Source: Desulfurococcales archaeon (GTDB lineage: Archaea > Thermoproteota > Thermoprotei_A > Sulfolobales > WAQK01). From it: a stretch of DNA of 64,000 bases. The first letter of the stretch is position 1. Each line of letters starts with the position of its first letter. Location: positions 543 through 64,542 of the forward strand of contig JALWQH010000023.1 in the NCBI GenBank assembly GCA_027083135.1, given 5' to 3'. The notes below the pieces were generated by a model. The model saw nothing but the letters and a program-made list of their open reading frames with translations. It was not told the origin of the DNA and did not search any database. A program made the position numbers and the translations under genes. This document shows, piece after piece, positions 25,597 through 46,112 of this stretch.

Positions 25597-26007
25597 CTAT
25601 TTCTTCACCCATAGTCTTTTCACTGCAGGTATTTTGTCGAACTCTCTATCCTCAGTAACTATTGCGGTGATACCATTATTGGCCATAGCTCCTAGGTGGA
25701 GGGCGTCTGAGGGCTTAAGATTATATTTCGCTAGGAGTTTTGCCGCCTGCCTGTATTCCTCTTCACCTAGGGCAATTATAGATATGTAGGGGAGGACATT
25801 TGATTCTATGAACTCCATTGAGACACCATATGGAATATTGTATTTTCTCCTAGAGACATAGATCAGCTCATCGAGGACGAGGACATCAGTATAAGATTTA
25901 TGCTTCGCCAAGACTTCTAAGTAGAAGTTCTCATAGGGGATCCTGTTCTCAGAATCTGCCATGGTGTTGAGGTATATGAGAAGCGGTGCATCTATGAATA
26001 CCTTCAT
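25597..26007 (-). CDS. vapC: VapC PIN-domain toxin
   Basis: VFIDA, VLDEL, PSDALH, TEDREFD motifs. Confidence 0.92.
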   Translation of the reverse strand: MKVFIDAPLLIYLNTMADSENRIPYENFYLEVLAKHKSYTDVLVLDELIYVSRRKYNIPYGVSMEFIESNVLPYISIIALGEEEYRQAAKLLAKYNLKPSDALHLGAMANNGITAIVTEDREFDKIPAVKRLWVKK

Positions 26008-26273
26008 TACTCAAACTCCTCCTCAAGATAGGTTTCTGCTAGCTCGCCTGGTTTAGGCTCCCTCCTACCCTGTATTCTCTTAATCACCTCAACATGTCTT
26101 CTCAGAGACTCCCTAAGCTTCTCAGCATCTACCTTTCTCCTAGCAGGCTTAAGTACAATTCCATCCCTGATTTCCACAATAACCTCATCACCCTCATCAA
26201 TACCGACAACCTCACGGATAGCCTTCGGCAATATTATGTAGCCCTTCCTACCAACCCTCAACTTAAGAGTCAA
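26007..26273 (-). CDS. vapB: AbrB/MazE-type VapB antitoxin
   Basis: RVGRKGYIILPKAIRE...GDEV; coupled to vapC; CCAGGTT/AACCTGG inverted repeat upstream. Confidence 0.9.
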   Translation of the reverse strand: MTLKLRVGRKGYIILPKAIREVVGIDEGDEVIVEIRDGIVLKPARRKVDAEKLRESLRRHVEVIKRIQGRREPKPGELAETYLEEEFE

Positions 26274-26554
26274 ACCAGGTTCACCTAAAGTATAACCTGG
26301 CTAAACCGATTATTAAGCTTCCCTAAGACACTAGTTTAAGTGAATGAACACACTATATCTAGCATCCGATGCCATAGGGAAGATCACTGCCTCACTAGGA
26401 ATTAGCCTGTCAGGGCTGAATAAAAGAACCATGAATTCTACTAAGATTCATGAAACCAAATATTATTATGAAGGAAAAATGTAGGAATGCATCGATTAGA
26501 AGCCATTCTTGGCAGGGATAACGTTTACAGGGAATATGCTGCTCCTCGCTCTTT

Positions 26555-27052
26555 TTATTGTGCTATAGTTTTCCTCCACTCCTCATATTCTTTAGGCGAT
26601 ACTACTTGCAGCTCGTTTATCATGGTTGTATATCCCTCCTCTCCCATTCTCTCCAGTATTCCACCTAGGTTTCCGCTAACCTTATACCAGTCGTCAAGGT
26701 CATTTGTTATTATTATAGGTATGTCGTTCAGGAGTATTAGTGAGGCGTGTATTGAGTCATACTTAATGTTCACTACTTCGTTTATTATGGCTGCTAGTCT
26801 TATGACATCCTCATCTATGTTCAGTAATGTTATTCCCAGTGATAGATAATCCTCTGTAGCCCTCCTAGCAACATGGGGGCTTATCTTTGAGAGGGAGCCG
26901 AGGAGCTCTAAAGCCACTAGGATTGAACCATGGGCTTCATAGACTCCCCTATCAACATCCTTTAGAATCTCGGCACACAGCTCTCCATACACTGGATGAT
27001 GTATTATAGCGTAGACATAAATGTTTGTGTCAATATATGCTTTAATTCTCAT
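26555..27052 (-). CDS. vapC: VapC PIN-domain toxin (ORF is open to 27103; start placed at MRIKAYIDTN)
   Basis: YIDTNIY, LEL, YDSIHA, TNDLDD motifs. Confidence 0.88.
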   Translation of the reverse strand: MRIKAYIDTNIYVYAIIHHPVYGELCAEILKDVDRGVYEAHGSILVALELLGSLSKISPHVARRATEDYLSLGITLLNIDEDVIRLAAIINEVVNIKYDSIHASLILLNDIPIIITNDLDDWYKVSGNLGGILERMGEEGYTTMINELQVVSPKEYEEWRKTIAQ

Positions 27053-27290
27053 TCCATGATTCCTCAACAAGTTTAACAGCATCAATGCTGATAGGTTCAC
27101 CAACTAGGTTGAGCATATCATCAACAGGATTCCTCGTACGAGGCACTACGGGTTCCAGGATCACCTTCCCATCCTTAACCTTAACTCTCAGGAGATCACC
27201 TATACGGATGCCTAGTTTCTCCCTAACCTCTTTAGGCAGTGTTACCTGGTGTTTCCGCGTAACCTTCACCAAAGCACGCATAATTATCAC
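27042..27290 (-). CDS. vapB: AbrB/MazE-type VapB antitoxin
   Basis: KVTRKHQVTLPKEVREKLGIRIGD. Confidence 0.92.
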   Translation of the reverse strand: MIIMRALVKVTRKHQVTLPKEVREKLGIRIGDLLRVKVKDGKVILEPVVPRTRNPVDDMLNLVGEPISIDAVKLVEESWNEN

Positions 27291-27453
27291 AAGTACTACG
27301 TACTACACAGCACCTAAAACCTTTACGTTTCACCTGGAAGGCTTCTCATCCACCTGCAACCTATAGGGGCACCACGCCTCTTCGGATATCTTACTCTATA
27401 AGTGACTGCCAATGAAGCATTATCCTCGTGTAGAAACATTCTCATCGAAAACA

Positions 27454-27467
27454 TCAGCACTCAAGAC
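27454..27467 (+). repeat. attL core TCAGCACTCAAGAC
   Basis: Exact copy at 59744-59757; 72 bp upstream of the integrase; inner arm GGGATGTAGAA at 27481-27491. Confidence 0.85.
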
Positions 27468-27539
27468 TCTCATCACAGCGGGGATGTAGAACCTCACTTT
27501 CATCTAGGTCTCCCCCCATTATATATTCTCTGAGGATCG

Positions 27540-28661
27540 ATGGGGGAGGGCGTGTACGACTATAGGGAGTCGGAGTACTATAAGAGGCTTCCCCGGGACA
27601 TTAGGGAGCTACTGGACGACTTCTACTCCTGGATGCTGGGGAGCATGAGGGAGACGACTGCAGGGAGGTTTGCGTGGGATGTGGCCAGGATCCTAGTGGA
27701 GGAGGCCTTCAACCCCCTCGACCTAGACTTGGCTAAGGCCAGGAGGGTGGTGGCAAGGGTCTCGGGTATGAGGCCCGGCACGAGGAGATGGTACGTGTCC
27801 CTCATGAGGAGGCTCGCCGCCTACCTCTACGAGATACACGGCTCGGAGAAGGCAAAGGAAATACTCGAGAAGCTCAAGTCCCCGAGGGTCAGGCTTCCCC
27901 CACCCGAAACCCTCACACCCGAGGAGGCCGAGAGGCTGCTGGAGGAGGCCAGAACCCTCAAGAACAAAGCCCTGATAGCCGTGCTCCTAGAGGGAGGCTT
28001 GAGGATAAGCGAGGCCCTCAGCCTCAGAATAGGGGACGTGGAGTTCGACGAGTATGGAGCCAAGCTCTACGTAAGGCAGAGCAAAACAGAGGCTAGGCCA
28101 GTAAGGATAATCAAGTACACCCACATCCTCCGGGCATGGCTTCAAAGCCACCCCCAGAGAAACAACCCCCAAGCATGGCTATTCCCCAAGGCAACAAACC
28201 CTGATAAACACATGACCCCCCAAACCGCAAACAACAATATCAAAAGAATAGCAAGGAGGGCAGGAATAAAGAAGAACGTACACCCCCACATCCTAAGACA
28301 CACCAGGGCAACCATGCTAGCCACAAGGCTAACAGACAGAGAAATGATGATGGTATTCGGCTGGAAAACAGTAGAAATGGTGAGGAGATACACACACCTA
28401 ACCATGAGAGACGTGGAAACCAGCCTCCTCAAAAAGGTCTACGGAATAGACAAGGACGATGACAGGACACCCCTAACCACCAAGACCTGCCCTAGATGCG
28501 GAGCCCAAAACCCAGCCCAAGCAAAATTCTGCTGGAACTGCGGATACCCATTCGAACAAGTACAAATCCAAATAATCAAGAAGGAAACAGAGACCGAGCA
28601 ACTAGCAAGAAAAATAGCAGAGCTATTGAAGCAGAATCCAGAGATACTAGGACAGCTGTGA
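27540..28661 (+). CDS. int: Tyrosine integrase with C-terminal Zn ribbon (SNJ2-like architecture)
   Basis: GLRISE (R), SKT (K), HILRH (HxxR), FGW, RRYTH (Y); CPRC...CWNC; gene intact, not split. Confidence 0.95.
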
Positions 28662-31397: not shown

Positions 31398-31673
31398 TCA
31401 CAGGCTCCGCATCTTCCTCTTAACATAGTCTAGGATGCTTTCACGCGTCTTGGGGCTCCAGCCCCTAACCTTACTGTTATTCTTAGGCTTAGAGAGACGT
31501 ATGAGGAGGAGAAGCCTACCCCTAGCCGTCTTCTTGGAGATCCTGTGCCTCCTATAATCCCTCACAATAGCCCGGGCAATACTCCTGAACTCCGAGGGCC
31601 TGTCGAGACCCTTAAGCCCCCTATCCTTAACCCTCCTCCCAAGATACTTGTAGCGCCTAGCCACGCCTACCAC
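31398..31673 (-). CDS. Small highly basic protein, VP2-like virion nucleoprotein candidate
   Basis: 91 aa, strongly Arg/Lys-rich, located in the structural module. Confidence 0.6.
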   Translation of the reverse strand: MVGVARRYKYLGRRVKDRGLKGLDRPSEFRSIARAIVRDYRRHRISKKTARGRLLLLIRLSKPKNNSKVRGWSPKTRESILDYVKRKMRSL

Positions 31674-32085
31674 GCCTCCGCCTATATCTGCGTTTCATGG
31701 TGCCAGCATCTATCCCCTCAATATCATAGCGCTCAGGATGGTTCATCCACCTCTCAATCATGACTATGCTCCTAGGATTAGGCTTAGGCCTAATAGTCCT
31801 CCTAGCCCTATACAGGTCATCCATACGCTGAGCCCTCTCACTCCTACCCTCATGCAGCATCTGAGCAGTATAGAGGAGCTGGCTAAGCGTCTCCTCGAGA
31901 TCCCCCCGCCTATAATCACCCCTCACAACCAAGCTCCTAATATGCCTGAGATTAGCCCTGTAGCCAAGCCTAGGATCAATCTCAGCCCTAACATCAATAG
32001 ACTCGGGATCATAGCCATGCCTAACAAGGTATTTCCTAATCATACGTATCTGGAGAGACACGGGCATACGCCTACCCATACACAT
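31657..32085 (-). CDS. Basic viral protein of unknown function
   Basis: Arg-rich, WMNHPERYDIEGID motif, overlaps the next gene. Confidence 0.65.
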   Translation of the reverse strand: MCMGRRMPVSLQIRMIRKYLVRHGYDPESIDVRAEIDPRLGYRANLRHIRSLVVRGDYRRGDLEETLSQLLYTAQMLHEGRSERAQRMDDLYRARRTIRPKPNPRSIVMIERWMNHPERYDIEGIDAGTMKRRYRRRRGRRG

Positions 32086-32106
32086 CCCTCTAACACTCTA
32101 TGCGGA

Positions 32107-33402
32107 TCACCAAGTCTCAGGGAGTTCGAGGATCTTTCTCCTGCTCCTGGCTGCAACTATGAGCCTGTAAACCATTATGATGATGTTGAGCATCAATACT
32201 ACTCCTAGGAGAAGCCCTGAGGCTGAGAGGATCACGCGGTCCTCGGAGCCAGAGGCATAGCTGTACTCCCTAGCAGTGAGAAGAATACCGTAGCCTGAGA
32301 CAAGGCTCATAACAGCCGCGGCTGGAACCCCTAGAAGCCAGGAGACCAGGGGGCTGAACAGGGAGGCTAGGAGGACAACAATGTAGAGGCCTGAGAGCTC
32401 CAGCTTCTCCCTATGCTCCACCACCAGGGGCTCAGTGCTCGGAGGCCCCGAGAAATATACCTCCACCTCAACATACATGGAGGAGCTCCAACTAACAGAG
32501 GCCTCAGGCACCAAGCCATCACCAGTGCTGGGCCCTGAGACCACCAGGCTCCCCAAGACAGCACCGCTAGAAGGATCCCTGAAAACCACGTAAGAGCCCA
32601 GCGGGAAGAACAACAGGTGGAGGGCATTATCACCATAGGCCCCATGAATAACCCAGACCCACCGCTCGTCAGGCTCCCTAGCAACACTCCCCTCAATGCC
32701 CCCCCAAGCATAGAGGCCGTAGAACCCCTGGCCTGAAAGCCAAGTAGGATCAAAGAGGAGGACAGGGCTCGAGACCGTATGATTATCCCATAGCTCCTCC
32801 AGCCCTCCTAGCCCCAGGCTCCTCGGGAAGCCTGCAACGTATCTTATCTCACCCCTCCACCTCTGAGCACTCATCTCACTCCCATTATAGCTGCTAGTAC
32901 CTATCAGGAGAGAGTTGTTTAGACGGGAGCCAGCACCGCTCCAAGAAGCCTGGGCTGATAGGGCACCGTTCACGTAGAGGAGGATGTGGGTGGAGTTGGA
33001 GACCCCCGCGATCCTGGTCCAGCTCCCCTCGCTCGCAGGGGCTCCCTCAGCCACAACAGTAGAGCCTGAGGAATCCCTCCTAGCAAAATCCCAGCGGTCG
33101 GAGACCTGGCTGACGTAGAGCCTCCAGTCAAGCTCATCCTTACTTGCAATAGCGTTCCAGTCAGGAGTGCTGTAGGCCTTAACCATAGCCGCAACAGTCA
33201 GGTCAGGGCCCTCCAGGGCATCGGTGTGGGGGAACACCACGTAGCCTGAGCCATTCAATACGAGCTTGTAGGCATGATAACCCAAGGCATCCCCGGGCCC
33301 AAGCTCAACACGGAACTCCACGTCGGGGCCCGAAGCCCCAGCCACAGGGGCTAGGACGAAGGAGGCGAGCAGGATAACTATGAGCAGCAAGGCAGGCCTC
33401 AC
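32107..33402 (-). CDS. LamG/concanavalin A-like membrane-anchored virion protein
   Basis: Signal peptide, LNGSGYV...W.RIAGV...LYVNG...LLIG...WRGEI LamG pattern, three C-terminal TMs. Confidence 0.8.
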   Translation of the reverse strand: MRPALLLIVILLASFVLAPVAGASGPDVEFRVELGPGDALGYHAYKLVLNGSGYVVFPHTDALEGPDLTVAAMVKAYSTPDWNAIASKDELDWRLYVSQVSDRWDFARRDSSGSTVVAEGAPASEGSWTRIAGVSNSTHILLYVNGALSAQASWSGAGSRLNNSLLIGTSSYNGSEMSAQRWRGEIRYVAGFPRSLGLGGLEELWDNHTVSSPVLLFDPTWLSGQGFYGLYAWGGIEGSVAREPDERWVWVIHGAYGDNALHLLFFPLGSYVVFRDPSSGAVLGSLVVSGPSTGDGLVPEASVSWSSSMYVEVEVYFSGPPSTEPLVVEHREKLELSGLYIVVLLASLFSPLVSWLLGVPAAAVMSLVSGYGILLTAREYSYASGSEDRVILSASGLLLGVVLMLNIIIMVYRLIVAARSRRKILELPETW

Positions 33403-33459
33403 ACTAATCCCCTACAACTAGGTGCGGAGAAAAAGAAGAGGCTGGGGTTTAAGGGGAGG

Positions 33460-33732
33460 CTACTCGCCGCTGAAGCCTCCCGCCACGACACGTATCATTA
33501 TCATCACTAAGCCCACTATCGCTACTGCAAGCGCGATGATTATGCCTGTCCCAGCAAAGCTCTGAGCCGTATTAATACTATTAGTGAACTCCTGGGGGAT
33601 AGTTATAGTAGAGTTGTTGAGATTGCTGGTTATAGTGTTGAAGGCTCCGAACAGTAGTCCAAGCCCTATAGCCACCCCCGCTATCATCGCTATTAGGAAC
33701 AGCCATCCCAGCAGACTATTCATAGCCACCAC
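33460..33732 (-). CDS. Major capsid protein candidate, spindle-shaped virus type
   Basis: 90 aa; two hydrophobic helices separated by an Asn/Thr/Ser loop with N-x-S/T sequons; followed by a U-rich terminator-like tract. Confidence 0.75.
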   Translation of the reverse strand: MVAMNSLLGWLFLIAMIAGVAIGLGLLFGAFNTITSNLNNSTITIPQEFTNSINTAQSFAGTGIIIALAVAIVGLVMIMIRVVAGGFSGE

Positions 33733-33765
33733 TTATCCCTGCATCATAGTGCGGAACATGATCAA

Positions 33766-34092
33766 CTATTCCTCAGCACTCCTCCTCCAAGCACCGTAAA
33801 GCAGGCCTGCCAGAGCAAGAGCGGCAACCATGAGGATCCACTTCCCAGTATAAAGGCTGGCTACAACAATAGCCGAGACACCCGTCGCTGCAAGACTCCT
33901 AGTCTTAAGATAAACACTGGCAACAACAAGGGGGCCCAGCAAGGCTGTGAAGAGCCCGAAGGTGGAGCTACTCCACCATTCAACCATAGCTGTGACATTC
34001 AAGGGGTCGGGGAACGTTATGCTGGGCGGGGAGGGAGGCTCAGCCCCAGCCAGCACGGCTAAAAGCCAGGTAGGAATAATCACTCCAGCCAC
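33766..34092 (-). CDS. Small viral membrane protein
   Basis: Hydrophobic 108 aa, RBS present, structural module. Confidence 0.7.
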   Translation of the reverse strand: MAGVIIPTWLLAVLAGAEPPSPPSITFPDPLNVTAMVEWWSSSTFGLFTALLGPLVVASVYLKTRSLAATGVSAIVVASLYTGKWILMVAALALAGLLYGAWRRSAEE

Positions 34093-34096
34093 CCCT

Positions 34097-34468
34097 CTAG
34101 CTAAGCATTCTGAAAGCCAAGCCCCTGAAGAACTGCACAGCCGCCAACAGCAGGCTGACGGTTCCCAGGAGGTTAAGCCCCGTTACCAGGCTGCTGGGAG
34201 GAGGGAATGGCAGGAGGCCTGCCACAGTATCCCCCAGCAAAGCGGCTCCAAGAATCACTTTCCAAAGCTTCTCGAAAAGCATGGGGAGCTGGACAACCAT
34301 GTAGAGGGGATCATACTTCATACTAGTAGCCGCCTCAACATCGCTCTTATCAACATTGAAGGGCATCGAGCCTGGAGACAAGCCGTAAGCCTCCCTAAAC
34401 GCACTTATGCTGAGGCTCAGCAGGAATATGAACATCGCTATGCTCAGAGCCCTCACATCCACCCCCAA
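34097..34468 (-). CDS. Small viral membrane protein (minor virion protein candidate)
   Basis: Hydrophobic termini, tightly packed operon. Confidence 0.7.
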   Translation of the reverse strand: MGVDVRALSIAMFIFLLSLSISAFREAYGLSPGSMPFNVDKSDVEAATSMKYDPLYMVVQLPMLFEKLWKVILGAALLGDTVAGLLPFPPPSSLVTGLNLLGTVSLLLAAVQFFRGLAFRMLS

Positions 34469-34485
34469 TAACCTGATGCGGAGCC

Positions 34486-37203
34486 CTACACCCTCCTCCT
34501 ATAAACGAAGCCAAGCCCGCCTAGAATGAACGCTAGGCCCAGCACAGCATCAGGGACGGAGAGCCAGCCCCAATACCCAAACGTGGCCAGCAGGCCAGCA
34601 CCCACCACGGCGAAGAACCCCGCGGTAGCCTCATTGGCCAGCAGCATGACTCCGAGGATGACTACAGCCGCCACTGTGCCCTTATGCTCCTGCAGCCAGT
34701 CTGGGAGAGGCAGCGTAGCATTCCTCCCTGGACTCCACTTCCAAGGCCATGAGGAGACCTTCCAGGAGCCCTCCAGGTTGCTCTTAATCTCAGAGCCGCT
34801 GAGGCTGCCCACATAGCCCACCACAATAGTGGATGTTATCCTATCCACAAACCCCCTAATATAGAGGAGACCATTAGACTCATTATAATAGTAGCCTACA
34901 ACACCAGTATTGTTAAGCTCATCCAACGATGAAACATTCCTCAGCTCCACGCCATCCATGGAGACATAGTCAAGGCTACCCACAATATGGAGGCACACAG
35001 TGAACTCTGCGAAAGGCTTCGTGTCAAGCTCCAATGTAAGCCTCGACTCAACAGCAGTATCATTAACCACACCCACCTCCTCGTAAGTAAACTGGGCTAG
35101 GGAAGCACCCCTAACATACTCGAAGCCGAAGGCCATGTGCCTCTCATAGTTCTCGAGGAGGTAGAGCATGCCTGTAGCCACGCTGCTCTGAGTCTCCACG
35201 TTGGTCTCATCAGCCCCATCCCACGTAAGCTCCCACAGCTCATCGCTCAGCAGGCTCCAAATCCTGTTCAAAGACACGATCAGCTTGGGATCAGTCCAGT
35301 AATAGTAGCTCATAGCCTGGAGGAAGTAGCCCTGAGCATAAGGCTCCTTCTCATCCAAGTAGCCCTTATACCAGTACTCCCCAGGAGCCTCATCCAGGCT
35401 CCTATACCTATAGTAATAATACCTGTCGTAAACACTGTCATAGTGGAACCAGTTGTTCATCAAGTAGTCGACAGCCTCCTTATACGTCTCATTCTTAGTC
35501 CTATCATACAATGCTAGGAGAGCATGAGCCACCTCAGCATTAACATCGAGATAAGTAGCGGCTCCGAACGGCGGGGGAATATCAAGGAACCCCCCGTTCC
35601 TAACATCACCTGGATCCCTAACCTGGCTTCTAAGCAGAGTATTAGAAGCACTAATAGCCTCGGACAAGTAGGTCCTATTCCCAGTATAATCATAGATGTA
35701 AAGAGCCGACAAGATATAGTTGCTTAAAGCCCTGTTGCTGACAAACCAGCTCCAAGAGTCAAACACCTTCTTAACAGTGGCGAACACGTTCTCCACGAAC
35801 TCGTAGTCGCCAACCCTGAGGGAAGACATAACTATGGAGGCCATAGCAAACCCCTTGAAAACACCCGTACCAGTATTAACAGCGAAGCTGAAGTCCCTGC
35901 CATCAAAGCTATCAACATTGTACAGCATATCCTCGTAGACCTTGTATAAGCCTGGAGCAAAGCTCGACATAGGAACGATCTTGAACTCAACACTGCTTGA
36001 AGAATTAGTGGAGTTTGCAGTCAGGTTGCCCATCTGAACCTCAAACTTCATCCACCTGAAATACCAGTCATAGTCAGGCTTCTGCCTATTACCATAACCC
36101 CACACATGCACACCCTTATCAGCAGGGACAAGAACCGCGAAAGCCCTGTTCATACCTATAGGCCTCTTAGTGAAGAACAAGGCCAGGCGCCACCCATTCC
36201 TCTCCTCCCACACGTTCTCCCAGCTACGCGCCAAGTGGTACTCCTTCTCATCACCGCTGCTCAGAACACTCCCACTAGTAGAAGCATTAACCAAGCCTAC
36301 ACCTGGAAGATAAGCATACTGGTACTGCCACCAATCCAGGTTATCGAAAGCCAATGTAACCCTGACGTTAGTCAGATTCATCCCCGAAATATTAGTGACA
36401 TTAAACCTGACGAGAACATAGGGCTTCCCAGGAATAACAACATAGTCCTGCACATAGCGGAGGACACCGTCACTCATAACCCTCTCAAGCACGTAGCTCG
36501 AACCATCCTGATATATCCTGGCATCAATGATCCTCCCATCACCCAGGCTCCCATCACCCGTATCCCATATACCCCTATAATCCGAGCCGTTAACAGAGCC
36601 GTTAAAATACCAGACCTCAGTCGACTTAATGTTAGCGAGATACCACAGGTTAGGCCACGAGAAACCATGCTCCAACACATTATTGTAATCCTTATAGATG
36701 TCCATTGAGAGGACAATGCACCTACCATACTTATCAGTCCTATTCCCAGCGAGATCACCGCCCACATTGACGATAAGGTTCCCAATACTCGCATCACTCA
36801 GATTAGTCGACAAAACCCTATCATAGGGATCCGTGACATACCTTGTGAACAAGTATATGTCCCCGCCATCCTGGTATGAGAGAAGCTCCTTGTACTTAGA
36901 GATAAGGGAGGATAAGAGATCACTGTAGCCGAGGAACACTAGGAGCTGGGCAGCCTCACCCTGCTCAGTATTCCAATGCCACCTCTGCCCCTCAGGTGTC
37001 CCCCAAGTCTCCCTAAACAGCCCCGTGGAATTATCGTAGAGCCTCTGGACAAGGACCTCAGCCATCCTCCTCCACAAGTGAGGGTCAACTACGAGGAGCT
37101 TGCTGGGAGTAACCCAGTCAGCCACCCCTCCCCTAGCAGTAACACCCGCCAGAGGAGCTGCGAGAAGCATGAGTAACAGTAGGGGAAGGACAGCACGCCT
37201 CAA
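34486..37203 (-). CDS. Large membrane-anchored virion protein, glycoside-hydrolase-like alpha/alpha barrel (tail spike candidate)
   Basis: Signal peptide, many sequons, WNTEQGE, DVNAEVAHALLALYDRTKNETY, TNVETQ motifs, C-terminal TMs. Confidence 0.7.
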   Translation of the reverse strand: MRRAVLPLLLLMLLAAPLAGVTARGGVADWVTPSKLLVVDPHLWRRMAEVLVQRLYDNSTGLFRETWGTPEGQRWHWNTEQGEAAQLLVFLGYSDLLSSLISKYKELLSYQDGGDIYLFTRYVTDPYDRVLSTNLSDASIGNLIVNVGGDLAGNRTDKYGRCIVLSMDIYKDYNNVLEHGFSWPNLWYLANIKSTEVWYFNGSVNGSDYRGIWDTGDGSLGDGRIIDARIYQDGSSYVLERVMSDGVLRYVQDYVVIPGKPYVLVRFNVTNISGMNLTNVRVTLAFDNLDWWQYQYAYLPGVGLVNASTSGSVLSSGDEKEYHLARSWENVWEERNGWRLALFFTKRPIGMNRAFAVLVPADKGVHVWGYGNRQKPDYDWYFRWMKFEVQMGNLTANSTNSSSSVEFKIVPMSSFAPGLYKVYEDMLYNVDSFDGRDFSFAVNTGTGVFKGFAMASIVMSSLRVGDYEFVENVFATVKKVFDSWSWFVSNRALSNYILSALYIYDYTGNRTYLSEAISASNTLLRSQVRDPGDVRNGGFLDIPPPFGAATYLDVNAEVAHALLALYDRTKNETYKEAVDYLMNNWFHYDSVYDRYYYYRYRSLDEAPGEYWYKGYLDEKEPYAQGYFLQAMSYYYWTDPKLIVSLNRIWSLLSDELWELTWDGADETNVETQSSVATGMLYLLENYERHMAFGFEYVRGASLAQFTYEEVGVVNDTAVESRLTLELDTKPFAEFTVCLHIVGSLDYVSMDGVELRNVSSLDELNNTGVVGYYYNESNGLLYIRGFVDRITSTIVVGYVGSLSGSEIKSNLEGSWKVSSWPWKWSPGRNATLPLPDWLQEHKGTVAAVVILGVMLLANEATAGFFAVVGAGLLATFGYWGWLSVPDAVLGLAFILGGLGFVYRRRV

Positions 37204-37493
37204 TCAAAATACACCTCCTCAGGCCTCCTCCTCATACTCTCAATCAAAATATAGATGATTATCGAGCCGAACACCACGACTGGAACCCAGCTCCAAACAC
37301 TCTCAAAATACCCGTTAATCTTATCCGAGATCTGCCTCCAGGAATCAGGGATCAGGAGGCCGTTCTCAGATGCAGAGTCATACAGGTAGTCCTGCAGCCC
37401 AATAAAGAAGCCTGTAAGCTGAGCCAGGAAGCTCATAGCAATCCATATACCGAAGAGAGCGACAACAGCTGTAACCCACGCCCTAGCAGCCAA
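37200..37493 (-). CDS. Two-TM viral protein
   Basis: 97 aa, two hydrophobic helices, overlaps the next start. Confidence 0.7.
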   Translation of the reverse strand: MAARAWVTAVVALFGIWIAMSFLAQLTGFFIGLQDYLYDSASENGLLIPDSWRQISDKINGYFESVWSWVPVVVFGSIIIYILIESMRRRPEEVYFD

Positions 37494-37516
37494 TCCTACC
37501 CCGTATAAACTATGCG

Positions 37517-39193
37517 TCAGCCAAGCACAATCCGCCTAAGACTAGGCACAGGGTAAAGTATCTCACTATACCTCCTACCCCTCAAGCCACGCCTCCTCCT
37601 CCCCTGGAGAACAATAGGAGCCCTAAACCTAGCAGGGATCCTGGGAGCAGAGATGCGTGGAGGCCTAGGGGGACTGGGTTCTCCCAGAGCCCCCAGCACA
37701 AGATTCCTAGCCCTAACCTTGCTGCGCAGCACCTCAAACTCCCCTAACATGCCTCTACCCTTAACCCTGCCCCTAGACCCCACTCCTCCTTTAGGGAGGC
37801 TAAGGGAAACAGGGAGAACAGAGGGCTTAGAAGCCCTACGCATAGAGCCCAAGCCCACTACTCCGAGGGCTCCGAGGCCCCGAATACTCCTAGACTCACT
37901 CCAGAAACGCACAATCATCCTCCCAGGCCTCCCCACCTCGACTCCAGCCAGCCTTCCCAGCTCCCTGGATCCTAGGCGTACACGCGGCTCCTCAGCACCC
38001 CTCTCCTCTAGGAGAAGAGAGCCGCGGCCAACAGGCTTCTCCACCTCTCTGGGAGGCCTAGGCCCCTGCCCCTCCACTCGGGGCAGGAAATCCTCAATGC
38101 TTGGCGCGTTCTCCTCGGAAGGAGGCCTAGGCTCGCCTGGAGGCTTAACCCTGAAGCCATACCTCCTAGCCTCACCCAGCTCGGGGATCCTCTCCACTCT
38201 GGGAGCCCTGCCCCTCCTAACAGCTACGAACTCATCCTCCACCCTATAGTCCTCCACACTTCTCCTCAGAGCCTCAGCCTCCACCACGCCTGGCCTCGAG
38301 GAAAACCTCTCAACCCTAAGCTCACCGGGCTCAAGCTCAGCCCTAGCAACCTCCTTGTACCCCAAGCCCGAGCGGAGAGAGTAGACGCGGCCCCTGACTG
38401 GAAGCTCCTCCCCCTCAACCCTAGTAGTCCACAGCTCCCAGGCCTCCCCCCTAAGCCCCTCCCCACCAGAGGCAAGCTCCACTCCCCTATAAGCCTCAGG
38501 CTTAGAAGCCCTATACACCCTGTAAACCACAGGAGCCTCACGCGTATAGGTCAGCCTAGCCTCATCACCTGAAAACAAGCCCCTAGCCTCCTCGGAGGGA
38601 GGCCTGTAGGGCTCAGCAACCTCAGCATAATACCTGTCAGGCAGAAGCTTGGAGACACCTGCACCCAAAGCCTTCCCTCCAACATAGCCTCCCACAACCG
38701 AGCCTGCAAGCTCACTCCAGCTAAGCGGATTATTCCTAAGCTCATCTAGGAGGGGGGAAGGATTCCTAAGCGTCTTATAAGTCCTATAGTAATCCATAGG
38801 GTTAACGATGCCTGTCAGCCCCTCCACCACGCCTCTACCGAAGTAAAGAGCAGATAAGCCGAAGGCAGCACCAAAGGCCTCAGCCTCATGGAACCCGCCT
38901 CTCCCACGGCTACCCTCATACACTCCCTGCAGCCTCTTCTCAGCAGGCCTGAACAAGTGCTCCTCAACATAGCTCCTAGCCTCCTGAACCTTAGAGTCAA
39001 CAAACCCTAGAATACGCCTCCAACCAGACTCCCGCCTAGCCCTCCTAGCCTTCCTGGCAAGATAAGCCTGATACGCTATAGCCGAGCTAAGCTCCCCATA
39101 ATAGGTTTCACCCGGAGGCTGGGAGGGAAGCCTGAGGGCCTCGGGATCCTCACTATACTCACGCTCCCTCTCCAAGCCCCCAGTATAGCTCAA
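37517..39193 (-). CDS. Viral protein with Gly-rich hydrophobic segments and Arg/Pro-rich C-terminus
   Basis: 558 aa ORF translationally coupled to the upstream gene. Confidence 0.7.
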   Translation of the reverse strand: MSYTGGLEREREYSEDPEALRLPSQPPGETYYGELSSAIAYQAYLARKARRARRESGWRRILGFVDSKVQEARSYVEEHLFRPAEKRLQGVYEGSRGRGGFHEAEAFGAAFGLSALYFGRGVVEGLTGIVNPMDYYRTYKTLRNPSPLLDELRNNPLSWSELAGSVVGGYVGGKALGAGVSKLLPDRYYAEVAEPYRPPSEEARGLFSGDEARLTYTREAPVVYRVYRASKPEAYRGVELASGGEGLRGEAWELWTTRVEGEELPVRGRVYSLRSGLGYKEVARAELEPGELRVERFSSRPGVVEAEALRRSVEDYRVEDEFVAVRRGRAPRVERIPELGEARRYGFRVKPPGEPRPPSEENAPSIEDFLPRVEGQGPRPPREVEKPVGRGSLLLEERGAEEPRVRLGSRELGRLAGVEVGRPGRMIVRFWSESRSIRGLGALGVVGLGSMRRASKPSVLPVSLSLPKGGVGSRGRVKGRGMLGEFEVLRSKVRARNLVLGALGEPSPPRPPRISAPRIPARFRAPIVLQGRRRRGLRGRRYSEILYPVPSLRRIVLG

Positions 39194-39492
39194 CGCCTCC
39201 TCCCTCTCCTCTCACTCGCCTCGAAGCCAGGCATACCGATCAGTCCCAGGAGATCAGGGCTCCTCGAGGAGCGCCTAGGCTTCTCCGAATCCCTGAGCAT
39301 CCCCCTGATCCTCCTCTTACGGTAGTCGCCGATAATCCTCTTAACCTCCTCCTCGCTGAGCACACCGTTCTCCAAGCCAAGCATGATCTCCCTGGCAACC
39401 CTCTTAGAAACCCCATACTTCTTAGCCAGCCCGTTAACCCTCCGCTCACGCTCAAGAAGCTCACGGATCCTAAGCCTAACACCACTAAGCAA
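39190..39492 (-). CDS. Small basic viral protein
   Basis: LAKKYGVSKRVARE HTH-like segment; operon packing. Confidence 0.65.
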   Translation of the reverse strand: MLSGVRLRIRELLERERRVNGLAKKYGVSKRVAREIMLGLENGVLSEEEVKRIIGDYRKRRIRGMLRDSEKPRRSSRSPDLLGLIGMPGFEASERRGRRR

Positions 39493-39517
39493 GCATCAAT
39501 CCCCAAAACAAAATGCG

Positions 39518-40258
39518 TCAACCCATAGCATAGGAGAACACGTAGGGAGCAACCTCAAAGTAATAAGCCTTGAACAGCTCCCTATCCTGCACGATCCCAC
39601 GCCTAACAAGATAGGAGAAGAGGAACTCACGCATCCTGCTCCTCCCCAATAGGAAGCTAGCAGCAGCGAAGCACGAGTAAATATAGCTGAGGCTAAGCAG
39701 ACTAGCAGAGAAATCACGCTTCTTCTTCATACTGGTCGTCCAAACCTTCTCCCCATACTCATCATAAAACCAGTTGAAAGCCCTGCGATGCACAAGCTTA
39801 ACCGTAGCCCAGAACGTGCCATCAGGGTCAAAACGCTTAACACCGCTCCTACGGTAAAGCCTATGCATAAGCTGCTCATACTCGTAGAACTGCCTCATAC
39901 CAGGATTCATCTTCCGAAGCACAATGCTCCTCTCACTCCTCTCAGGCGGAGCCCTGTGAGCCAAGGGATCCCTCTCACCACCCCCCAGCACAGGTGTTGT
40001 AGATTCATCGAGTTGTAAAGCCTGCATGGAGCTGTTATAGGCTCTGGAAGCCCTCTCCTCCATCCTCCTCTGAGCATAGAGGAAAAGCTTGTGGACACGG
40101 TTAACAAGGCGCAGGTAGAGCTCCCTGCTCCTAGTCCTCTCCCACTCACGGTAATCCTCAGGATAAAGATCCCTAGCAATATCAATATACTTCAACCCGT
40201 AGCCGCGGAGCTCCCAGACATCCATATACCTGGCTTCAGCAGTCAACTCTACCACCAT
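39518..40258 (-). CDS. Viral HTH protein, transcription regulator candidate
   Basis: N-terminal WELRGYGLKYIDIARDL HTH-like segment; own TTATAA at 40275-40280. Confidence 0.65.
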   Translation of the reverse strand: MVVELTAEARYMDVWELRGYGLKYIDIARDLYPEDYREWERTRSRELYLRLVNRVHKLFLYAQRRMEERASRAYNSSMQALQLDESTTPVLGGGERDPLAHRAPPERSERSIVLRKMNPGMRQFYEYEQLMHRLYRRSGVKRFDPDGTFWATVKLVHRRAFNWFYDEYGEKVWTTSMKKKRDFSASLLSLSYIYSCFAAASFLLGRSRMREFLFSYLVRRGIVQDRELFKAYYFEVAPYVFSYAMG

Positions 40259-40285
40259 ATAGGGATGAGCATGGTTATAAGCTGG

Positions 40286-40304
40286 GTGTCCACAGCATGG
40301 ACAC
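40286..40304. promoter_or_regulatory. Palindrome GTGTCCA-CAGCA-TGGACAC
   Basis: One of four copies; immediately upstream of the TATA box of 39518-40258. Confidence 0.75.
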
Positions 40305-40309
40305 GCAGG

Positions 40310-41260
40310 CTACCCGACAAGCTCCACCTCCACATCCTCCTCGCCCCCAGAATCCCCTGCACCAAGCCTAGCCAGGATGGAGCGGGCCAGCCGCCTAAGC
40401 TCAGGGGGAGACTCCTCGTCCTCAAGGACCTTCCTAGCAGCAGCCATGAGCTTGGAGGCCCTCTTAAGCTCCTCCTCCCTAATAGCATCCTCCAGCTCAG
40501 TCAAAGCGTGGTCAATGTACTGGTCCCTCATATCCATATACTTGGGGTAAACATCGTCGGGAATCCTCCTAACAAACTCCTCCTCAAACTGCTTATACAC
40601 CCTGACACTTCCCGAGGGGGCGACAGAGAAGCCGTAGCCATGAGCCCTGCTCCACCTCTCATCAACCTTAACAACCCTCACAATAATGTTCTCATACCTG
40701 CGGATAGGGCGGAGCATATCCTCAGGGCTCGGAGTACTCATAATCAAGGCTGAAGCCCTGCTCCTCACAAGCTTAACCACATCGCTTATCGCCTTCGCCT
40801 TAGCCACACTGGTGAAAAACATGTAGGCCCCACCGAAAACCCCCGCATCATCCCAAACCAATAATGGGATCCTCTTCCTCCACGAAGCACCCCTAAGCTT
40901 AGGGATAAGATCCCCTATATCGAAGAAGCTGTAGCGGAAAACAATGTCGCTGAAATCAACCCTGAAGCCAAGGCTCCTCATAGCATCCAAGGCAACCTTG
41001 AAGCTATACGTGGACTTCCCAGCCCCAAGCTTCCCGTAGATTATGGCTCCGAGGAACTCCGTCTCCCTGTAAGCCGAGACTATCCTCCTCCCAAGAACAC
41101 TCCACCCACTGCTCCTAGACTTCTCCCTAGCATCCACAACACTACTAGTATCCGCTACACGGTCAAGCTCCTCGGGCTCCCACTCCAACAGCTCCTCTAT
41201 CTCCCTAAGCGCCCTGACAACACTACGCTCCGCTCTCAACCTCCCTGCCCCTCTCAACAC
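40310..41260 (-). CDS. Viral P-loop ATPase, SSV1 B251-like
   Basis: Walker A GKLGAGKST, Walker B LLVWDDAG, IMSTP. Confidence 0.85.
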   Translation of the reverse strand: MLRGAGRLRAERSVVRALREIEELLEWEPEELDRVADTSSVVDAREKSRSSGWSVLGRRIVSAYRETEFLGAIIYGKLGAGKSTYSFKVALDAMRSLGFRVDFSDIVFRYSFFDIGDLIPKLRGASWRKRIPLLVWDDAGVFGGAYMFFTSVAKAKAISDVVKLVRSRASALIMSTPSPEDMLRPIRRYENIIVRVVKVDERWSRAHGYGFSVAPSGSVRVYKQFEEEFVRRIPDDVYPKYMDMRDQYIDHALTELEDAIREEELKRASKLMAAARKVLEDEESPPELRRLARSILARLGAGDSGGEEDVEVELVG

Positions 41261-41669
41261 CCCTGACGCTGAGGAACAAGCGGTGCCTATGCATCACGCC
41301 CAGAATAATCCTGAAAATACTGTCCAACGCCTTCTTCTTAACCGCGGCACACCTCCTCCTATAAACCATGGGATGCGTGAACTCGTCCCTCTGAGCCCTG
41401 CACTCCTCATCAACCCGCTTCTCAAAGTCCTCGAAGCTCCCCTCCTCCACGCCCAGAGCCTCACGCAGCCTAGCCTTAAGCTCCCTCTGAGCCCTGGGAG
41501 GCAGAAGCCCCCAAAGCGTATCCAGATCCTCAGCGTAAACCTCCACGAGCTCAGGGTTAAAGGACGCCAGCCTCTTACTCTCCATAGCGTTGGAGACAGC
41601 CCTTACAAGAAGGAACTGGTAGTTCCCATACAGGCCTCTAACCTCCTCAACCCTGCTCACACCAGTCAC
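41223..41669 (-). CDS. Viral protein upstream of the ATPase
   Basis: 148 aa, coupled on both sides. Confidence 0.7.
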   Translation of the reverse strand: MTGVSRVEEVRGLYGNYQFLLVRAVSNAMESKRLASFNPELVEVYAEDLDTLWGLLPPRAQRELKARLREALGVEEGSFEDFEKRVDEECRAQRDEFTHPMVYRRRCAAVKKKALDSIFRIILGVMHRHRLFLSVRGVERGREVESGA

Positions 41670-42685
41670 CCCCCACCCACACTTATAGTCCTAGGAAGCC
41701 CTGGAGCATGGGGAGCTCCGCCTCCATGCATACCCATATAGATGACGCCCAGCACACCCATCACCACTAGGCCTATGATCACTATGATGGGGAGCCACTT
41801 CTTCACCCAGTCGCGCATCCAGTCCTCCTTAACCTTCTCCATAAGGCTAGCCTGCTCAGCATTGATAATCTTCTTCAAGTCTGCTGGGTGGTGGCGCCAC
41901 ACAAGGTAGTCTATGAGGTCGGAGGCCTTGATCGTCACCCCGCCCAGCTTAGCCTCAAGCTCCTCCCTCGACCTGGGAGCAAGCTTCAAGACACGCTCCA
42001 AGTAATCTATCGCGCCCCTGAGCTCCGCCGCAGCCTTCTCTGGATCCTCTATCCTCCTCTGCTTCAACTCCTCTACACTCATATTCATGAGGGCATCAAG
42101 CTCTCCTTGAAGCTCCGCGAGCTGCTTCTCAGCAGCCCCGCGTCCACCCAGCCTCTCAAGCTCCTCCCAAGCCTTAGCAGCAGCGAAGAGGTCGTCAATA
42201 GTCTTAAACCTCTGCCTAAACACGGAGATCGCAGCGGTCATCCTAGGGTCAAGGGTGAACGGGTACTTCATATAGGCCAGCACGGCTCTAACACCCTTAC
42301 CCTTATGAATAGGCATGACGCTCTGACCATCAGCCGCGAACACATACTTCTCCTTGTAGGGCTTCCTAGAAGGAGTTATGAAGTGCCCATCACTCACACC
42401 AGGCATAAGCCTAACCTTACCGTCAGCACCCACAAGCAGGAGGAGGAACCCCGTCCTAGCACTATCAATAACATCAAGGATGAAGCCAGGCATAACCTGC
42501 TCCAACCCCAAGGCCACCGAGACCCCCACCAATCCCCCCAGAGCCAGGAACAAGAGTATAGCAGAGTAGGGAGCCACAAGACTGGCTATGAAGACGCCAA
42601 AACTAGTGGTATTGGCTATCACTCCGAGAGCAAGGAACACCAGGAGAGCCAGGAACCCAGCGAACCCAGGCCTCAAGGCTACCAC
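41666..42685 (-). CDS. Viral membrane protein with coiled coil
   Basis: N-terminal TMs, central coiled coil, C-terminal TM. Confidence 0.75.
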   Translation of the reverse strand: MVALRPGFAGFLALLVFLALGVIANTTSFGVFIASLVAPYSAILLFLALGGLVGVSVALGLEQVMPGFILDVIDSARTGFLLLLVGADGKVRLMPGVSDGHFITPSRKPYKEKYVFAADGQSVMPIHKGKGVRAVLAYMKYPFTLDPRMTAAISVFRQRFKTIDDLFAAAKAWEELERLGGRGAAEKQLAELQGELDALMNMSVEELKQRRIEDPEKAAAELRGAIDYLERVLKLAPRSREELEAKLGGVTIKASDLIDYLVWRHHPADLKKIINAEQASLMEKVKEDWMRDWVKKWLPIIVIIGLVVMGVLGVIYMGMHGGGAPHAPGLPRTISVGGG

Positions 42686-43167
42686 ACCTCCCTCCTACCC
42701 TCAACGTTAACGAGAACGCTCTTCCTGGTCTGCATCACCCTCTCAAACCCCTTGTAGCTCCTCCTAGCCCTAGCATACATCCAGATACGCAGATTCTCAG
42801 CTAGAAGCTGCTTGGCATGGCTCTCCTTAACGAAGTCGTCTAGAGCACCATAGCGGAGAGGCCTGGAAATACTGCTGTTCAAAGCAAGCTCTATCTGAGT
42901 AGCCAGGCTCTCAGTCTTCCAGAACAGCCACCTCATATCAGTCTCAGACAAGTAGCTCAAAGCCATATCCCTAGTAGCAAAAGCCAATACATAGCCCCAC
43001 AATTCCCTAGAAATACGCTCATCCTCCAATAAAGTGTAGAGGTCTCCTGGAAGACTAGGACCACTCTGAGCAAACTGAAGCGCAGCGCTTGCAAGCTCAG
43101 GGCTCACACCAGTAGGCTCCTTCCTAACACCCAGCATTTTGCTGAGAAAGTCAAGCATACCCATCAC
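42679..43167 (-). CDS. Viral protein, first gene of the morphogenesis operon
   Basis: 162 aa, GGTGA RBS, RRSYKGFER motif. Confidence 0.7.
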   Translation of the reverse strand: MMGMLDFLSKMLGVRKEPTGVSPELASAALQFAQSGPSLPGDLYTLLEDERISRELWGYVLAFATRDMALSYLSETDMRWLFWKTESLATQIELALNSSISRPLRYGALDDFVKESHAKQLLAENLRIWMYARARRSYKGFERVMQTRKSVLVNVEGRREVW

Positions 43168-43331
43168 CTATACATATACACACATACATACATGCCCCGC
43201 AGAAAGAGTGCGGAAACCCCCCTCCACTCCAGCCGCAACCTAGAGAATAAGGAAAACCATGATAGAATAATTTAAAAACCCATATAAATACCCCTTTAAA
43301 TACCTCGGAGACCATCAGCCCTTAAATATCC

Positions 43332-43350
43332 GTGTCCATCCCGTGGACAC
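43332..43350. promoter_or_regulatory. Palindrome GTGTCCA-TCCCG-TGGACAC next to AT-rich TAAATA repeats
   Basis: Abuts minus-strand TATTTAAG at 43321-43328. Confidence 0.75.
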
Positions 43351-43523
43351 GATGCATCCACACACAGGGCTTCCAGGAACCCGTAGAGATACTGAGGAAG
43401 AGAATAAGAAGGAGGGATCATCCGCTCTAGGCGGATTCCTGCCGCCGTGCGGCTCCACATCCCCGCCCAGGCTCTCCAACCATATAGTAGAACATGTTCC
43501 TTCTTATCTTAATTGCCTCTCTT

Positions 43524-44042
43524 TTAGCCTGCTAGTCTTAGGAGGAGCTCCTCGGCAGCACGCTTCTGAGTGTAGCTTAGAATGTAGTCCAGCTTCTTAT
43601 GCCCCGTGAGCTTAGCTATCAGTTGGGCTGAAACCCCTCTCTCCGCTAGTTGCGAGATGAAAGCATACCTCAAGGCATGCGTGTTAAAGCCCAGGGCTTT
43701 CCTCGTCCACGACTTTATCCTGGAGACCACCGTGTCTAAGCCGTGGACACGCAGTCCAGCAACAGCGAGGCGCTCACCCCTCCCAAGCTCCCTCGGAACA
43801 ACAACCAGCCTCTCATAGGGATCCCGCCTCTTCCGGACCCTCACCCTCAGCTTCCTCCTACCCGTCTCAGCCCACTTGAAGGCGGCCTCCACGGCCTCGC
43901 TTATCCTAAGCCCATTGGAGAGCTGTATCAACAATATACTGATATATGCACGAGCCACAGGCCTGGCATCCCTAAGCCTACCAACCAAATCCCTCCTAAC
44001 AACATTGTAGTCCAACCCCTTATCCCACGCATACAAACCCAT
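43524..44042 (-). CDS. Mini tyrosine recombinase (catalytic domain only)
   Basis: NGLRISEA, THALRY, TGH, LSYTQ catalytic residues in 172 aa. Confidence 0.88.
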   Translation of the reverse strand: MGLYAWDKGLDYNVVRRDLVGRLRDARPVARAYISILLIQLSNGLRISEAVEAAFKWAETGRRKLRVRVRKRRDPYERLVVVPRELGRGERLAVAGLRVHGLDTVVSRIKSWTRKALGFNTHALRYAFISQLAERGVSAQLIAKLTGHKKLDYILSYTQKRAAEELLLRLAG

Positions 44043-44182
44043 AGGAGTTCACCCCACAGGAGGTATGCGGAGAAAAGATGAACCCCTAAGTAGGCCTGGA
44101 GTTCACCTTTAGGCCCAAACATAAACTAATAACCTTTTGAAGACATCAAAGAGGTATCAACGAGTAGTATACTGAAAAATTT

Positions 44183-44863
44183 CTATTTCCATTGCAAGGT
44201 GGGTGCTATTCTCCTGGCTACATCATCCATATGGCTTAATATTTCTTCTTCAAGTTTTCTATAACCTTTGTAAGGTCTTAATGATAAGTCTGCAAGCTCA
44301 ATAGCACCGAAAAATAGTGAAGATGACCTTACCGTTTCATCAAGTAAGACAAGGACATGTTGGGGAGAAGCCCTGGGCCCTTTTAAAGGAAGATGTAAAC
44401 CAGGAATAGAAACCTTTTGAGAAAATTTAAGAATAGCATATGCGGCAAGCTCCATTAGAACTCCTGATAAATATGTAGCAGAACTCTTTGAAAATATAAA
44501 AACAGGGATATCCGCTCTCTGAAAAGAGTATATGCTTCTGAGGAAGTTCTTTTCATTTTCTGAAAGGTTTCTTAAAAGATTTTTATCTAAATCCAAATAA
44601 TCGTCTGAGAGTTCCTTAACTAGATAAACTCTTTTATATCCTTTATCTATTAGCATTCCTTTCACTTTTTCCAGCAGCTTAATGCCCTGAGGGTCATCTG
44701 TTTTATAGGAGCCGTATAATATTATAGTATACTCCTCCCTTATTGTATCTAAGCCTTTATCAATAATAGCATGTGAAGCAACGGCGTTTTGTCCTACATC
44801 CTCATAACCCTGCTTATTCGCTGCTGCATGTTCAGAGGCATTAGATAGCTCGTCATGCCTCAT
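44183..44863 (-). CDS. Low-GC cargo protein, possible nucleoside deoxyribosyltransferase/TIR-like fold
   Basis: IILYGSY...ADIPVFIF...SGVLMELAAY pattern. Confidence 0.5.
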   Translation of the reverse strand: MRHDELSNASEHAAANKQGYEDVGQNAVASHAIIDKGLDTIREEYTIILYGSYKTDDPQGIKLLEKVKGMLIDKGYKRVYLVKELSDDYLDLDKNLLRNLSENEKNFLRSIYSFQRADIPVFIFSKSSATYLSGVLMELAAYAILKFSQKVSIPGLHLPLKGPRASPQHVLVLLDETVRSSSLFFGAIELADLSLRPYKGYRKLEEEILSHMDDVARRIAPTLQWK

Positions 44864-44978
44864 TGCATGATCGAAGCCACAACAAGTATTTTATAGTAAG
44901 TTATTTTAATTTTTCTCAAGTGGACTTGGAGGAAGACTTTAATACAGATACTCCTCAAAATTTTTTGAGGAGGTAGAA

Positions 44979-45446
44979 ATGTGGAGAGTAAAAAACCTGT
45001 TTCATCCCATGTTAAGAAGAGCCTTAAAGGCCTTAGATAACGAGAAAAGGCAGCTAATACTAAGCTATATAATAGAGGAGGGGCCTGCAAGTCCGAGCGA
45101 TATGGCAAAGGCTCTCGGTATGCGTGACAACAAGCTAGCATACCATATACGGCAGCTAGTGATAGGGAACATAATCGAAGGAAAAGTAAGAAGGGGGAAA
45201 GTAATATATAGACTAAAGCCCTTCGGCATAGATCTGCTAAACAACATTTTCAAAGCACTAATACCCCCTTCCTTAAGGACACCTTCAGAAAAAAGACACA
45301 AACTAATAAAAGACTATGAATTCGAGCTGCCTCGTTTTGAAATAGATTGGGAGGCAATAGAGAGAAAAATGCTAGCCTACCAAGATATAAAAGCAAACGA
45401 GCCTTTAACCCTACATCTGGAGGAGGCGATGATATATGAACACTAA
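44979..45446 (+). CDS. ArsR-like winged-helix regulator
   Basis: KALDNEKRQLIL...SDMAKALG...LAYHIRQL. Confidence 0.85.
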   Translation: MWRVKNLFHPMLRRALKALDNEKRQLILSYIIEEGPASPSDMAKALGMRDNKLAYHIRQLVIGNIIEGKVRRGKVIYRLKPFGIDLLNNIFKALIPPSLRTPSEKRHKLIKDYEFELPRFEIDWEAIERKMLAYQDIKANEPLTLHLEEAMIYEH

Positions 45447-45825: not shown

Positions 45826-45846
45826 AATATAATAAGTTATTTTTTA

Positions 45847-46112
45847 TCATATCAGATAATAACTTGGTTTTACCCTTTTAACCATAAAATGCCTGTAGAA
45901 GCACGAGGTTTCGGTTGTGCCCGCCAGGCCCTCAAGCCTCTCAACAACCCTCTCCAGCAAGGCCCTAAGGGGAACGCGCTCACCCCTAAGCCACCGGCTC
46001 AAACTACTAACACTGACACCACTAAGCCTGGCAACATCCCTCAAGCTGAAGCCCAAGCCCTCCAACAAGCCCACAAGCTCCCTAAACCTAGCCAGCAAGA
46101 CCTCAACCCTCA
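45847..46112 (-). CDS. XRE-family HTH protein (3' part of listed ORF 45847-46488; start approximate)
   Basis: GFSLRDVARLSGVSVSSLSRWLRGERVP. Confidence 0.75.

Follow-up and report, generated by a model that had tools for sequence, protein, structure and literature searches.

The provirus and its site of integration

The window, i.e. the whole 64,000-nt stretch of DNA analysed here, contains an element of 32.3 kb (27454-59757), inserted in a box C/D sRNA gene of the host. Its ends share, as their longest direct repeat, a perfect 14-bp sequence (27454-27467 = 59744-59757), and when it is widened across the C/C' box, 20 of 22 positions are identical. The features on which the argument depends are the following (positions in the window):

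27430-27453, minus strand: flank on the outer left side, bearing the arm GATGAGAA 7 nt past the D box; the motif also follows the D box in genomes G001 and G041
27454-27467, minus strand: left att core, consisting of the final 10 nt of the guide and the D box; 14-bp direct repeat
27470-27475, minus strand: element-side C-box hexamer TGATGA, 12 nt ahead of the D box CTGA (27457-27454)
27481-27491, minus strand: left arm of an 11-bp inverted repeat, perfect match to the right arm
27485-27502, unstranded: composite motif (TGTAGAACC then ACTTTCA), with a direct copy at the right end (59657-59677); candidate arm-type protein site
27510-27550, unstranded: second inverted repeat (CCCCCAT...ATGGGGG), which encloses an AT-rich box and covers the integrase start; also in G142
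27540-28661, plus strand: intact tyrosine integrase of 373 aa with a C-terminal zinc ribbon, reading into the element
31398-48251, minus strand: colinear block of APSV1-like genes (APSV1 being a spindle-shaped virus); of the 37 element ORFs, 13 match APSV1
40310-41260, minus strand: DnaA-like ATPase, 45% identical to its APSV1 counterpart
52704-56978, minus strand: accessory defence genes (by Pfam), namely a Mrr-type nuclease and an Eco57I-type methyltransferase with a neighbouring ORF without Pfam family
59657-59693, unstranded: right end, where further copies of the arm motifs are left unpaired (59657-59665, 59671-59677, 59688-59693)
59727-59737, minus strand: right arm of the 11-bp inverted repeat, perfect match to the left arm
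59744-59799, minus strand: host box C/D sRNA gene as restored (attB), with C box 59798-59793, D' box 59781-59778, C' box 59765-59760 and D box 59747-59744
59829-59843, minus strand: promoter-like site for the host sRNA, scoring 5.0 bits

Judged on its genes alone, the element is an APSV1-like spindle-shaped provirus, sharing with that virus (NC_028268) a colinear core block and the DnaA-like ATPase. Its integrase had no match among the APSV1 proteins; it belongs to family PF00589 (E 1.5e-31; phrog_1), has the canonical catalytic residues R...HxxR...Y by inspection, and, of the phage records, is matched best by one from an Archaeoglobales pleomorphic virus (33% identical). With a core repeat at both ends and an intact catalytic integrase beside one of them, the locus has the make-up of a tyrosine-integrase attachment site.

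A second, short tyrosine-recombinase-like ORF of 172 aa lies in the middle of the provirus (43524-44042; phrog_9208) and has a homologue near the integrase of G187. The right end of the element (57705-59551) carries a winged-helix gene and a 430-aa gene without Pfam family, an operon that would point at the integrase after excision. By eye, we take the 430-aa product to resemble tRNA-guanine transglycosylase-like proteins.

A tRNA guide gene as the target

The restored host gene has the C, D', C' and D boxes in order together with a conserved antisense guide, as archaeal double-guide sRNAs do. Guide and D box were found in 212 of the 325 genomes of the order, and guide, D box and C' box in 126 of the 325, while a reversed control pattern gave nearly zero matches. 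The guide pairs with the anticodon arm of tRNA-Leu(CAA) over 11 nt, with the fifth base before the D box opposite C34, and on this complementarity it is predicted to direct Cm34 of tRNA-Leu(CAA). The gene for that tRNA was found in four of five relatives and was not found in the assembly of this genome.

For Pyrococcus, the accessible parts of two papers report guide sRNAs for C34 of tRNA-Leu(CAA) (PMC7994747, PMC7668247). The host sRNA resembles these guides in that its D+5 position pairs with C34 of the same tRNA, whereas the attP copy discussed below is a half molecule and the host gene is likened to them by its target, Rfam giving no match in the window at gathering score; orthologous and analogous host loci gave weak Rfam CD-box matches under that score. 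The D' segment of the host sRNA pairs with the D arm of tRNA-Leu(CAA) and may be a helper pairing instead of a second methylation guide; it has a conserved CTCGG (59782-59792), and the D' box is often degenerate. A pre-tRNA-Leu(UAA) (G000:C54:22695-22798) also matches the host guide over 11 nt when the first bases of its intron are included, with a G-U pair at position 34, and the host sRNA may act on this precursor too.

Use of guide genes by other elements

The same guide gene is found next to element DNA in further genomes. in G210 the site is seen both empty and joined to an element, the downstream flank being identical in the two; G001 has a 3-kb islet between two cores of this guide; related integrase sequence directly follows the D box in G041 and G019, the latter having tandem cores; and contigs of G005, G029 and G132 end at or beside the core. 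Double matches in G121, G126, G184, G007 and G132 are alleles or contig overlaps, not insertions, and second core copies in G008, G213 (L234) and G286, which are also without the C box, were excluded as probable chance matches.

An element in G142 sits in another C/D guide gene, antisense to the anticodon arm of tRNA-Val(CAC), and the intact guide gene and its synteny are visible in the sister genome G140. Its layout is that of the element in the window, with the integrase on the C-box side and the same inverted repeat over the integrase start. The evidence from empty or intact sites (G210; G140 compared with G142) concerns the sites and not this element's own insertion. Related integrases also stand directly after a third C/D guide family in G147 and G219, a family that is present in G158 as two alleles with different arms. 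Altogether, one integrase group uses at least three families of C/D sRNA genes as attB, two of them antisense to tRNA anticodon arms. In a quick integrase tree of modest support and long branches, which has no SNJ2 sequences among its taxa, the integrase of the window groups with those of P0002, G041, G142, G131, G187 and G049 (SH-aLRT 91), and the G147 and G219 integrases fall elsewhere. The related integrase of G187 is found at a tRNA 3' end, and the idea that all related integrases target sRNAs was rejected for this reason. On these sequence comparisons, tRNA-guide sRNA genes are a hotspot of attB sites for elements with intact integrases; this is the durable result of the analysis, and the literature searches did not turn it up.

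An inversion or an assembly join has separated the ends of the G142 element (G142:C26:77410 and 247662), which are now 170 kb from each other and oppositely oriented, and the genes of this element look conjugative. Along 13 bp, its element-side core (L269, G142:C26:77410-77425) agrees with the tRNA-Val(CAC) gene, and at a position where the host guide reads A it has the G of that tRNA gene, which hints at target switching between tRNA and guide genes.

Outside the element in the window, the left flank carries an element-type arm and was rejected as pristine host flank. Since this arm is of the G001/G041 type and is followed by two PIN-AbrB toxin-antitoxin pairs directly outside the left junction (25597-27290), the flank is likely the start of an older tandem islet with the PIN-AbrB pairs as its cargo; a far end of this putative islet was not found.

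Wider scans added junctions from metagenomes. Viral contigs gave no match to the integrase (0 loci); they contain at least 120 stretches with the core motif, and none of the 80 inspected had sRNA or arm context or an integrase, nor was the integrase present in any of the 36 stretches with the start-codon inverted repeat. The scan of genome contigs gave 14 matches and no new element. The metagenome scan gave 14 matches as well, six of which were retained as junctions and eight discarded as chance (six in long open frames, two in short repeats).

The reconstructed attP

Joining the inner ends of the element gives a modelled attP, and the bases on which the first-pass annotation of this DNA had built its case are all there as it described them: a 14-nt core, an 11-bp inverted repeat and, 12 nt from the D box, a C box. 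In the model, this attP forms a stem (MFE -21.1 kcal/mol, z -1.9), and the stem pairs with a probability of 0.93, compared with 0.09 at the integrated left junction. The inverted repeat exceeds what is expected by chance, because only 3 of 3000 random pairs of 40-nt element pieces reached 11 bp. The annotation had further held that the motif exists only after excision and that it is closed by the stem. The former holds for the stem, which is new in attP, but the integrated left junction already has C box, guide and D box in one unbroken stretch. As to the latter, the stem does not abut the boxes in K-turn register, and next to the bulge 0 of 6 C-helix pairs are formed. Since 12 of 35 host loci are likewise without the first C-helix pair, the poor register is not decisive. 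The motif does have a RUGAUGA C box and a CUGA D box with a guide of 10-12 nt. One listed sequencing run contains this DNA, labelled as a hydrothermal vent metagenome and possibly the source, and no RNA run is listed with it. In the contigs of the vent run, the left end gave no sign of an excised form, the junction being contiguous, without joint or loose end. A symmetric core dyad in attP was rejected, its symmetry being weak by eye.

The C box is missing from all 12 other element-side flanks compared (0/10 distinct flanks at this guide, which have 3-5 mismatches to it, 0/1 at the G110 islet and 0/1 at G142), a count in which 4 of the 10 distinct flanks come solely from the six metagenome junctions, themselves chosen by a pattern that requires the arm. 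The comparison is indirect, since the att sites belong to integrases that are only 33-45% identical to this one, the nearest integrase (P0002, 58% identical) being without genomic context. G142 offers the best comparison, because the layout and the inverted repeat at the integrase start are common to both elements. A TGATGA at the C position was also seen in one of the discarded metagenome matches (L101), yet in the coding frame of a contig with 26% G+C.

In the host sRNA the C' box is TGA-N-GA, and it reads TGATGA in 24 of 128 host rows, including G001 of the same family. As TGATGA is a common host variant, a C box that differs from the host C' box needs no explanation at the RNA level, and the hint of an RNA function that the annotation had seen in this difference is weak. 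Compared with the TGATGA version of the host gene, the attP segment has a single difference, at guide base 2, which is A in attP and G in 128/128 host rows. The attP guide pairs with the tRNA-Leu(CAA) of relatives over 9 contiguous bp and the host guide over 11, with energies of -11.8 to -14.3 against -18.6 to -21.2 kcal/mol, i.e. about 6-7 kcal/mol weaker. Functional C/D guides make at least 10 pairs with their target, a length of which the nine contiguous pairs of the attP guide fall short. A host-like segment with a mismatched and weaker guide resembles captured, decaying host DNA and not a selected guide, and the C box is likely the C' box of an earlier host's sRNA copy that was captured by the element.

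Inverted arms are more widely shared. Of five attPs modelled (this element, G001, G142, G019 and G110), three have inverted repeats, of 11 bp in this element, 10 bp in G001 and 11 bp in G142, with inner spacers of 33, 37 and 39 bp, respectively; arms of 10-11 bp are therefore found in two of the four other reconstructable attPs, and the small islets of G019 and G110 have none. The repeat of G142 is perfect and comes without a C box, and its arm sequences are wholly different from those of this element. The G001 arm TTCTCATC resembles this element's TTCTACATC, with CATC-to-GATG edges 37 bp apart in both, and it is conserved at a fixed distance in seven G001-type junction types, six metagenome junctions having been preselected for the arm. 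An 11-nt part of the composite motif recurs in the G187 element, which is related and has a tRNA 3' end as target. The arm heptamer occurs 13 times in the window, four times within 100 nt of the junctions with two of these copies unpaired, as counted with motifs picked after inspection. A stem needs only two copies, so the extra unpaired direct copies fit protein sites on DNA. The G001-type arms (L036, L091, L093, L096, L231, L243; L008, L038) are dyads of ATG-N12-CAT or CAC, and the downstream arm of this type resembles the start of the host C'-guide.

For transcription across attP we used a promoter model built from 42 tRNA upstream regions. An outward, minus-strand promoter-like site at about 27535-27519 scores 4.9 bits, next to 5.0 bits for the host sRNA site, and lies below the 10th percentile of tRNA promoters (5.9 bits); in the model it would start an RNA near 27495, about 4 nt before the arm. 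Sites of at least 4 bits are found at 0.55% of positions, so that one near an element end is not rare. A pyrimidine tract follows the right arm. The model gave no good plus-strand promoter site directly before the integrase.

The second inverted repeat, over the integrase start, is possibly an operator or a start-codon hairpin. A class-wide search for it found only G142 (1/351), and the version in this genome, which is one C longer, was missed by the pattern. The integrases of this element and of G142 both would begin with MGEG (L004/L269).

Function of the arms and the C box

We consider it probable, with some confidence, that the arms are sites for the recombination proteins of a tyrosine-integrase system and that the C box is captured host DNA. 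The integrase would exchange strands in a 7-bp stretch antisense to the anticodon loop of tRNA-Leu(CAA), and integration would rebuild guide and D box through duplication of the core, so that the host sRNA should survive. In attP, the arms and the extra direct copies would bind the integrase or an accessory protein, and the C'-box segment would be a passenger or part of a core half-site. Anticodon-arm guides would be usable targets because they are conserved and single-copy and mimic the anticodon-loop overlap of tRNA genes. As far as can be read from the DNA, the attP hairpin is real and is most likely a DNA site. The annotation had itself offered the reading of the arms as integrase sites roughly centred on the anticodon-loop sequence, and the arms found without C boxes in related elements support it.

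The annotation had also proposed, as the reading it preferred, that after excision the provirus gives rise to a single-domain C/D RNA, closed by the stem, that binds L7Ae and is a guide, a decoy or a K-turn switch turned on by recombination, which on our comparison is quite unlikely. Such an RNA would account for a perfect RTGATGA exactly 12 nt ahead of CTGA, for a stem that forms only in attP and holds at 85 °C in the model, and for the promoter-like site with its start near 27495 and the pyrimidine tract past the right arm. The host genome encodes fibrillarin, a minimal single-domain C/D RNA is described for Drosophila in the accessible part of PMC7994747, and an RNA stem could be formed just as well by arms that differ wholly between this element and G142. 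The proposal nevertheless fails the test of conservation that the annotation itself had named, with no C box in any of the 12 other flanks; the C-helix pairs are lacking, though the first is lacking in a good number of host loci too; the guide is mismatched at a position invariant in the host; its target would be that of the host sRNA, with the D-arm helper segment absent; and the promoter score is low and of a kind met by chance. It is equally hard to credit that excision builds, out of the outward promoter, the two halves of the stem and the C box-guide-D box unit, an RNA gene that is stable only in the episome, and we doubt strongly that an attP RNA, unique to this sRNA-targeting sub-lineage, competes with the host sRNA for L7Ae/Nop5/fibrillarin or for C34 of tRNA-Leu. 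If true, a viral guide RNA switched by recombination would be a new regulatory principle, which is unlikely on present evidence.

The arms might instead act in RNA without forming a C/D motif, in that a transcript across attP, either outward or reading through from the 57104-59551 operon toward the integrase, folds into a hairpin with an effect on termination or on the expression level of the integrase. In favour of this are the inverted repeats of this element and G142, which are unrelated in sequence, the second conserved inverted repeat, which in both elements covers the start codon of the integrase, and the lack of a good plus-strand promoter site immediately upstream of the integrase; we nevertheless consider it unlikely, as the unpaired direct copies and the TTCTCATC arm sequence kept in seven junction types fit a DNA-binding protein better. 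That inverted repeat and C box are mere coincidences is very improbable. TGATGA 12 nt from CTGA with this guide did turn up by chance in 1 of the 14 metagenome matches (L101), but the inverted repeat is rare among random pairs, similar arms are present in G001 and G142, and the C box lies within the 20/22 match to the host gene. The recurrence of arms in independent elements largely refutes coincidence.

Relation to known integration systems

The statements on published systems that follow refer to the accessible portions of the papers cited. A review of archaeal tyrosine recombinases names tRNA genes, protein genes and intergenic sites as targets, and in archaeal att sites the shared core is not sufficient, further bases being required (PMC8371274). 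SNJ2 integrases use a 14-bp core with conserved P/P' arms (PMC5861418), and the element in the window is like them in its intact integrase beside att, its 14-bp core and its P/P' arms (PMC5861418, PMC8371274). SNJ2 integrases are, however, confined to Halobacteria and target tRNA genes (PMC5861418, PMC8371274), whereas we find a C/D sRNA target and a zinc-ribbon integrase in a hyperthermophilic crenarchaeon; membership in the SNJ2 type was rejected, the target being a C/D gene and not a tRNA gene in the halobacterial clade. With SSV1/SSV2 and APSV1 the element shares the spindle-shaped-virus gene block, and with the SSV1/SSV2 att sites an overlap that matches the anticodon loop and has inverted repeats flanking it (PMC8371274); here the anticodon-loop sequence is antisense and lies in a guide gene. 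The APSV1 integrase is annotated as SSV-type, whereas this element's integrase is whole, and an SSV-type (suicidal) integrase was rejected since the 373-aa gene is uninterrupted and outside the core and has HxxR, not KxxR. In pNOB8 the att site also lies upstream of an intact integrase gene, but the pNOB8 residues are R...YxxR...Y (PMC5861418) and those of this integrase the canonical HxxR. The pNOB8 type was rejected on this difference.

Prophage att sites in bacteria also lie in tmRNA and ryeB. To our knowledge, bacteria are without C/D guide RNAs. The prophage phiEf11 is integrated in ffs, a bacterial small-RNA gene (PMC12540744). The present case is like such prophages in having a conserved small-RNA gene as attB whose 3' end is replaced by element DNA, and is unlike them in that one integrase group uses several C/D guide families.

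Among thaumarchaeal att sites, 15 of 68 are listed as 'intergenic', and the accessible part of this survey contains no mention of sRNA or snoRNA (PMC6563490). A search of mostly open-access literature listed no paper that, by its title or the opening of its abstract, deals with an archaeal element in a C/D sRNA gene or with a virus-encoded C/D RNA. The use of at least three C/D families as attB suggests that some 'intergenic' att sites are perhaps unannotated guide genes. It would also offer a possible route by which integrases switch targets between tRNA genes and their guides. On a practical matter, genetic tools for the order could use this site, conserved in about two-thirds of its genomes (212/325), as a neutral place to land.

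Further element-type sequences were seen on G000 contigs. A broken relative of the integrase, with stops within the match, lies at G000:C44:11605-12084, and there is no C/D motif within about 1 kb of it. A second provirus-like element of about 16 kb with a DnaA-like ATPase (G000:C54:28211-44589) has at its borders a 46-bp repeat that corresponds to the 5' part of tRNA-Val(CAC), and a third DnaA-like ATPase, on G000 C34, lies beside a partial tRNA-Leu copy.
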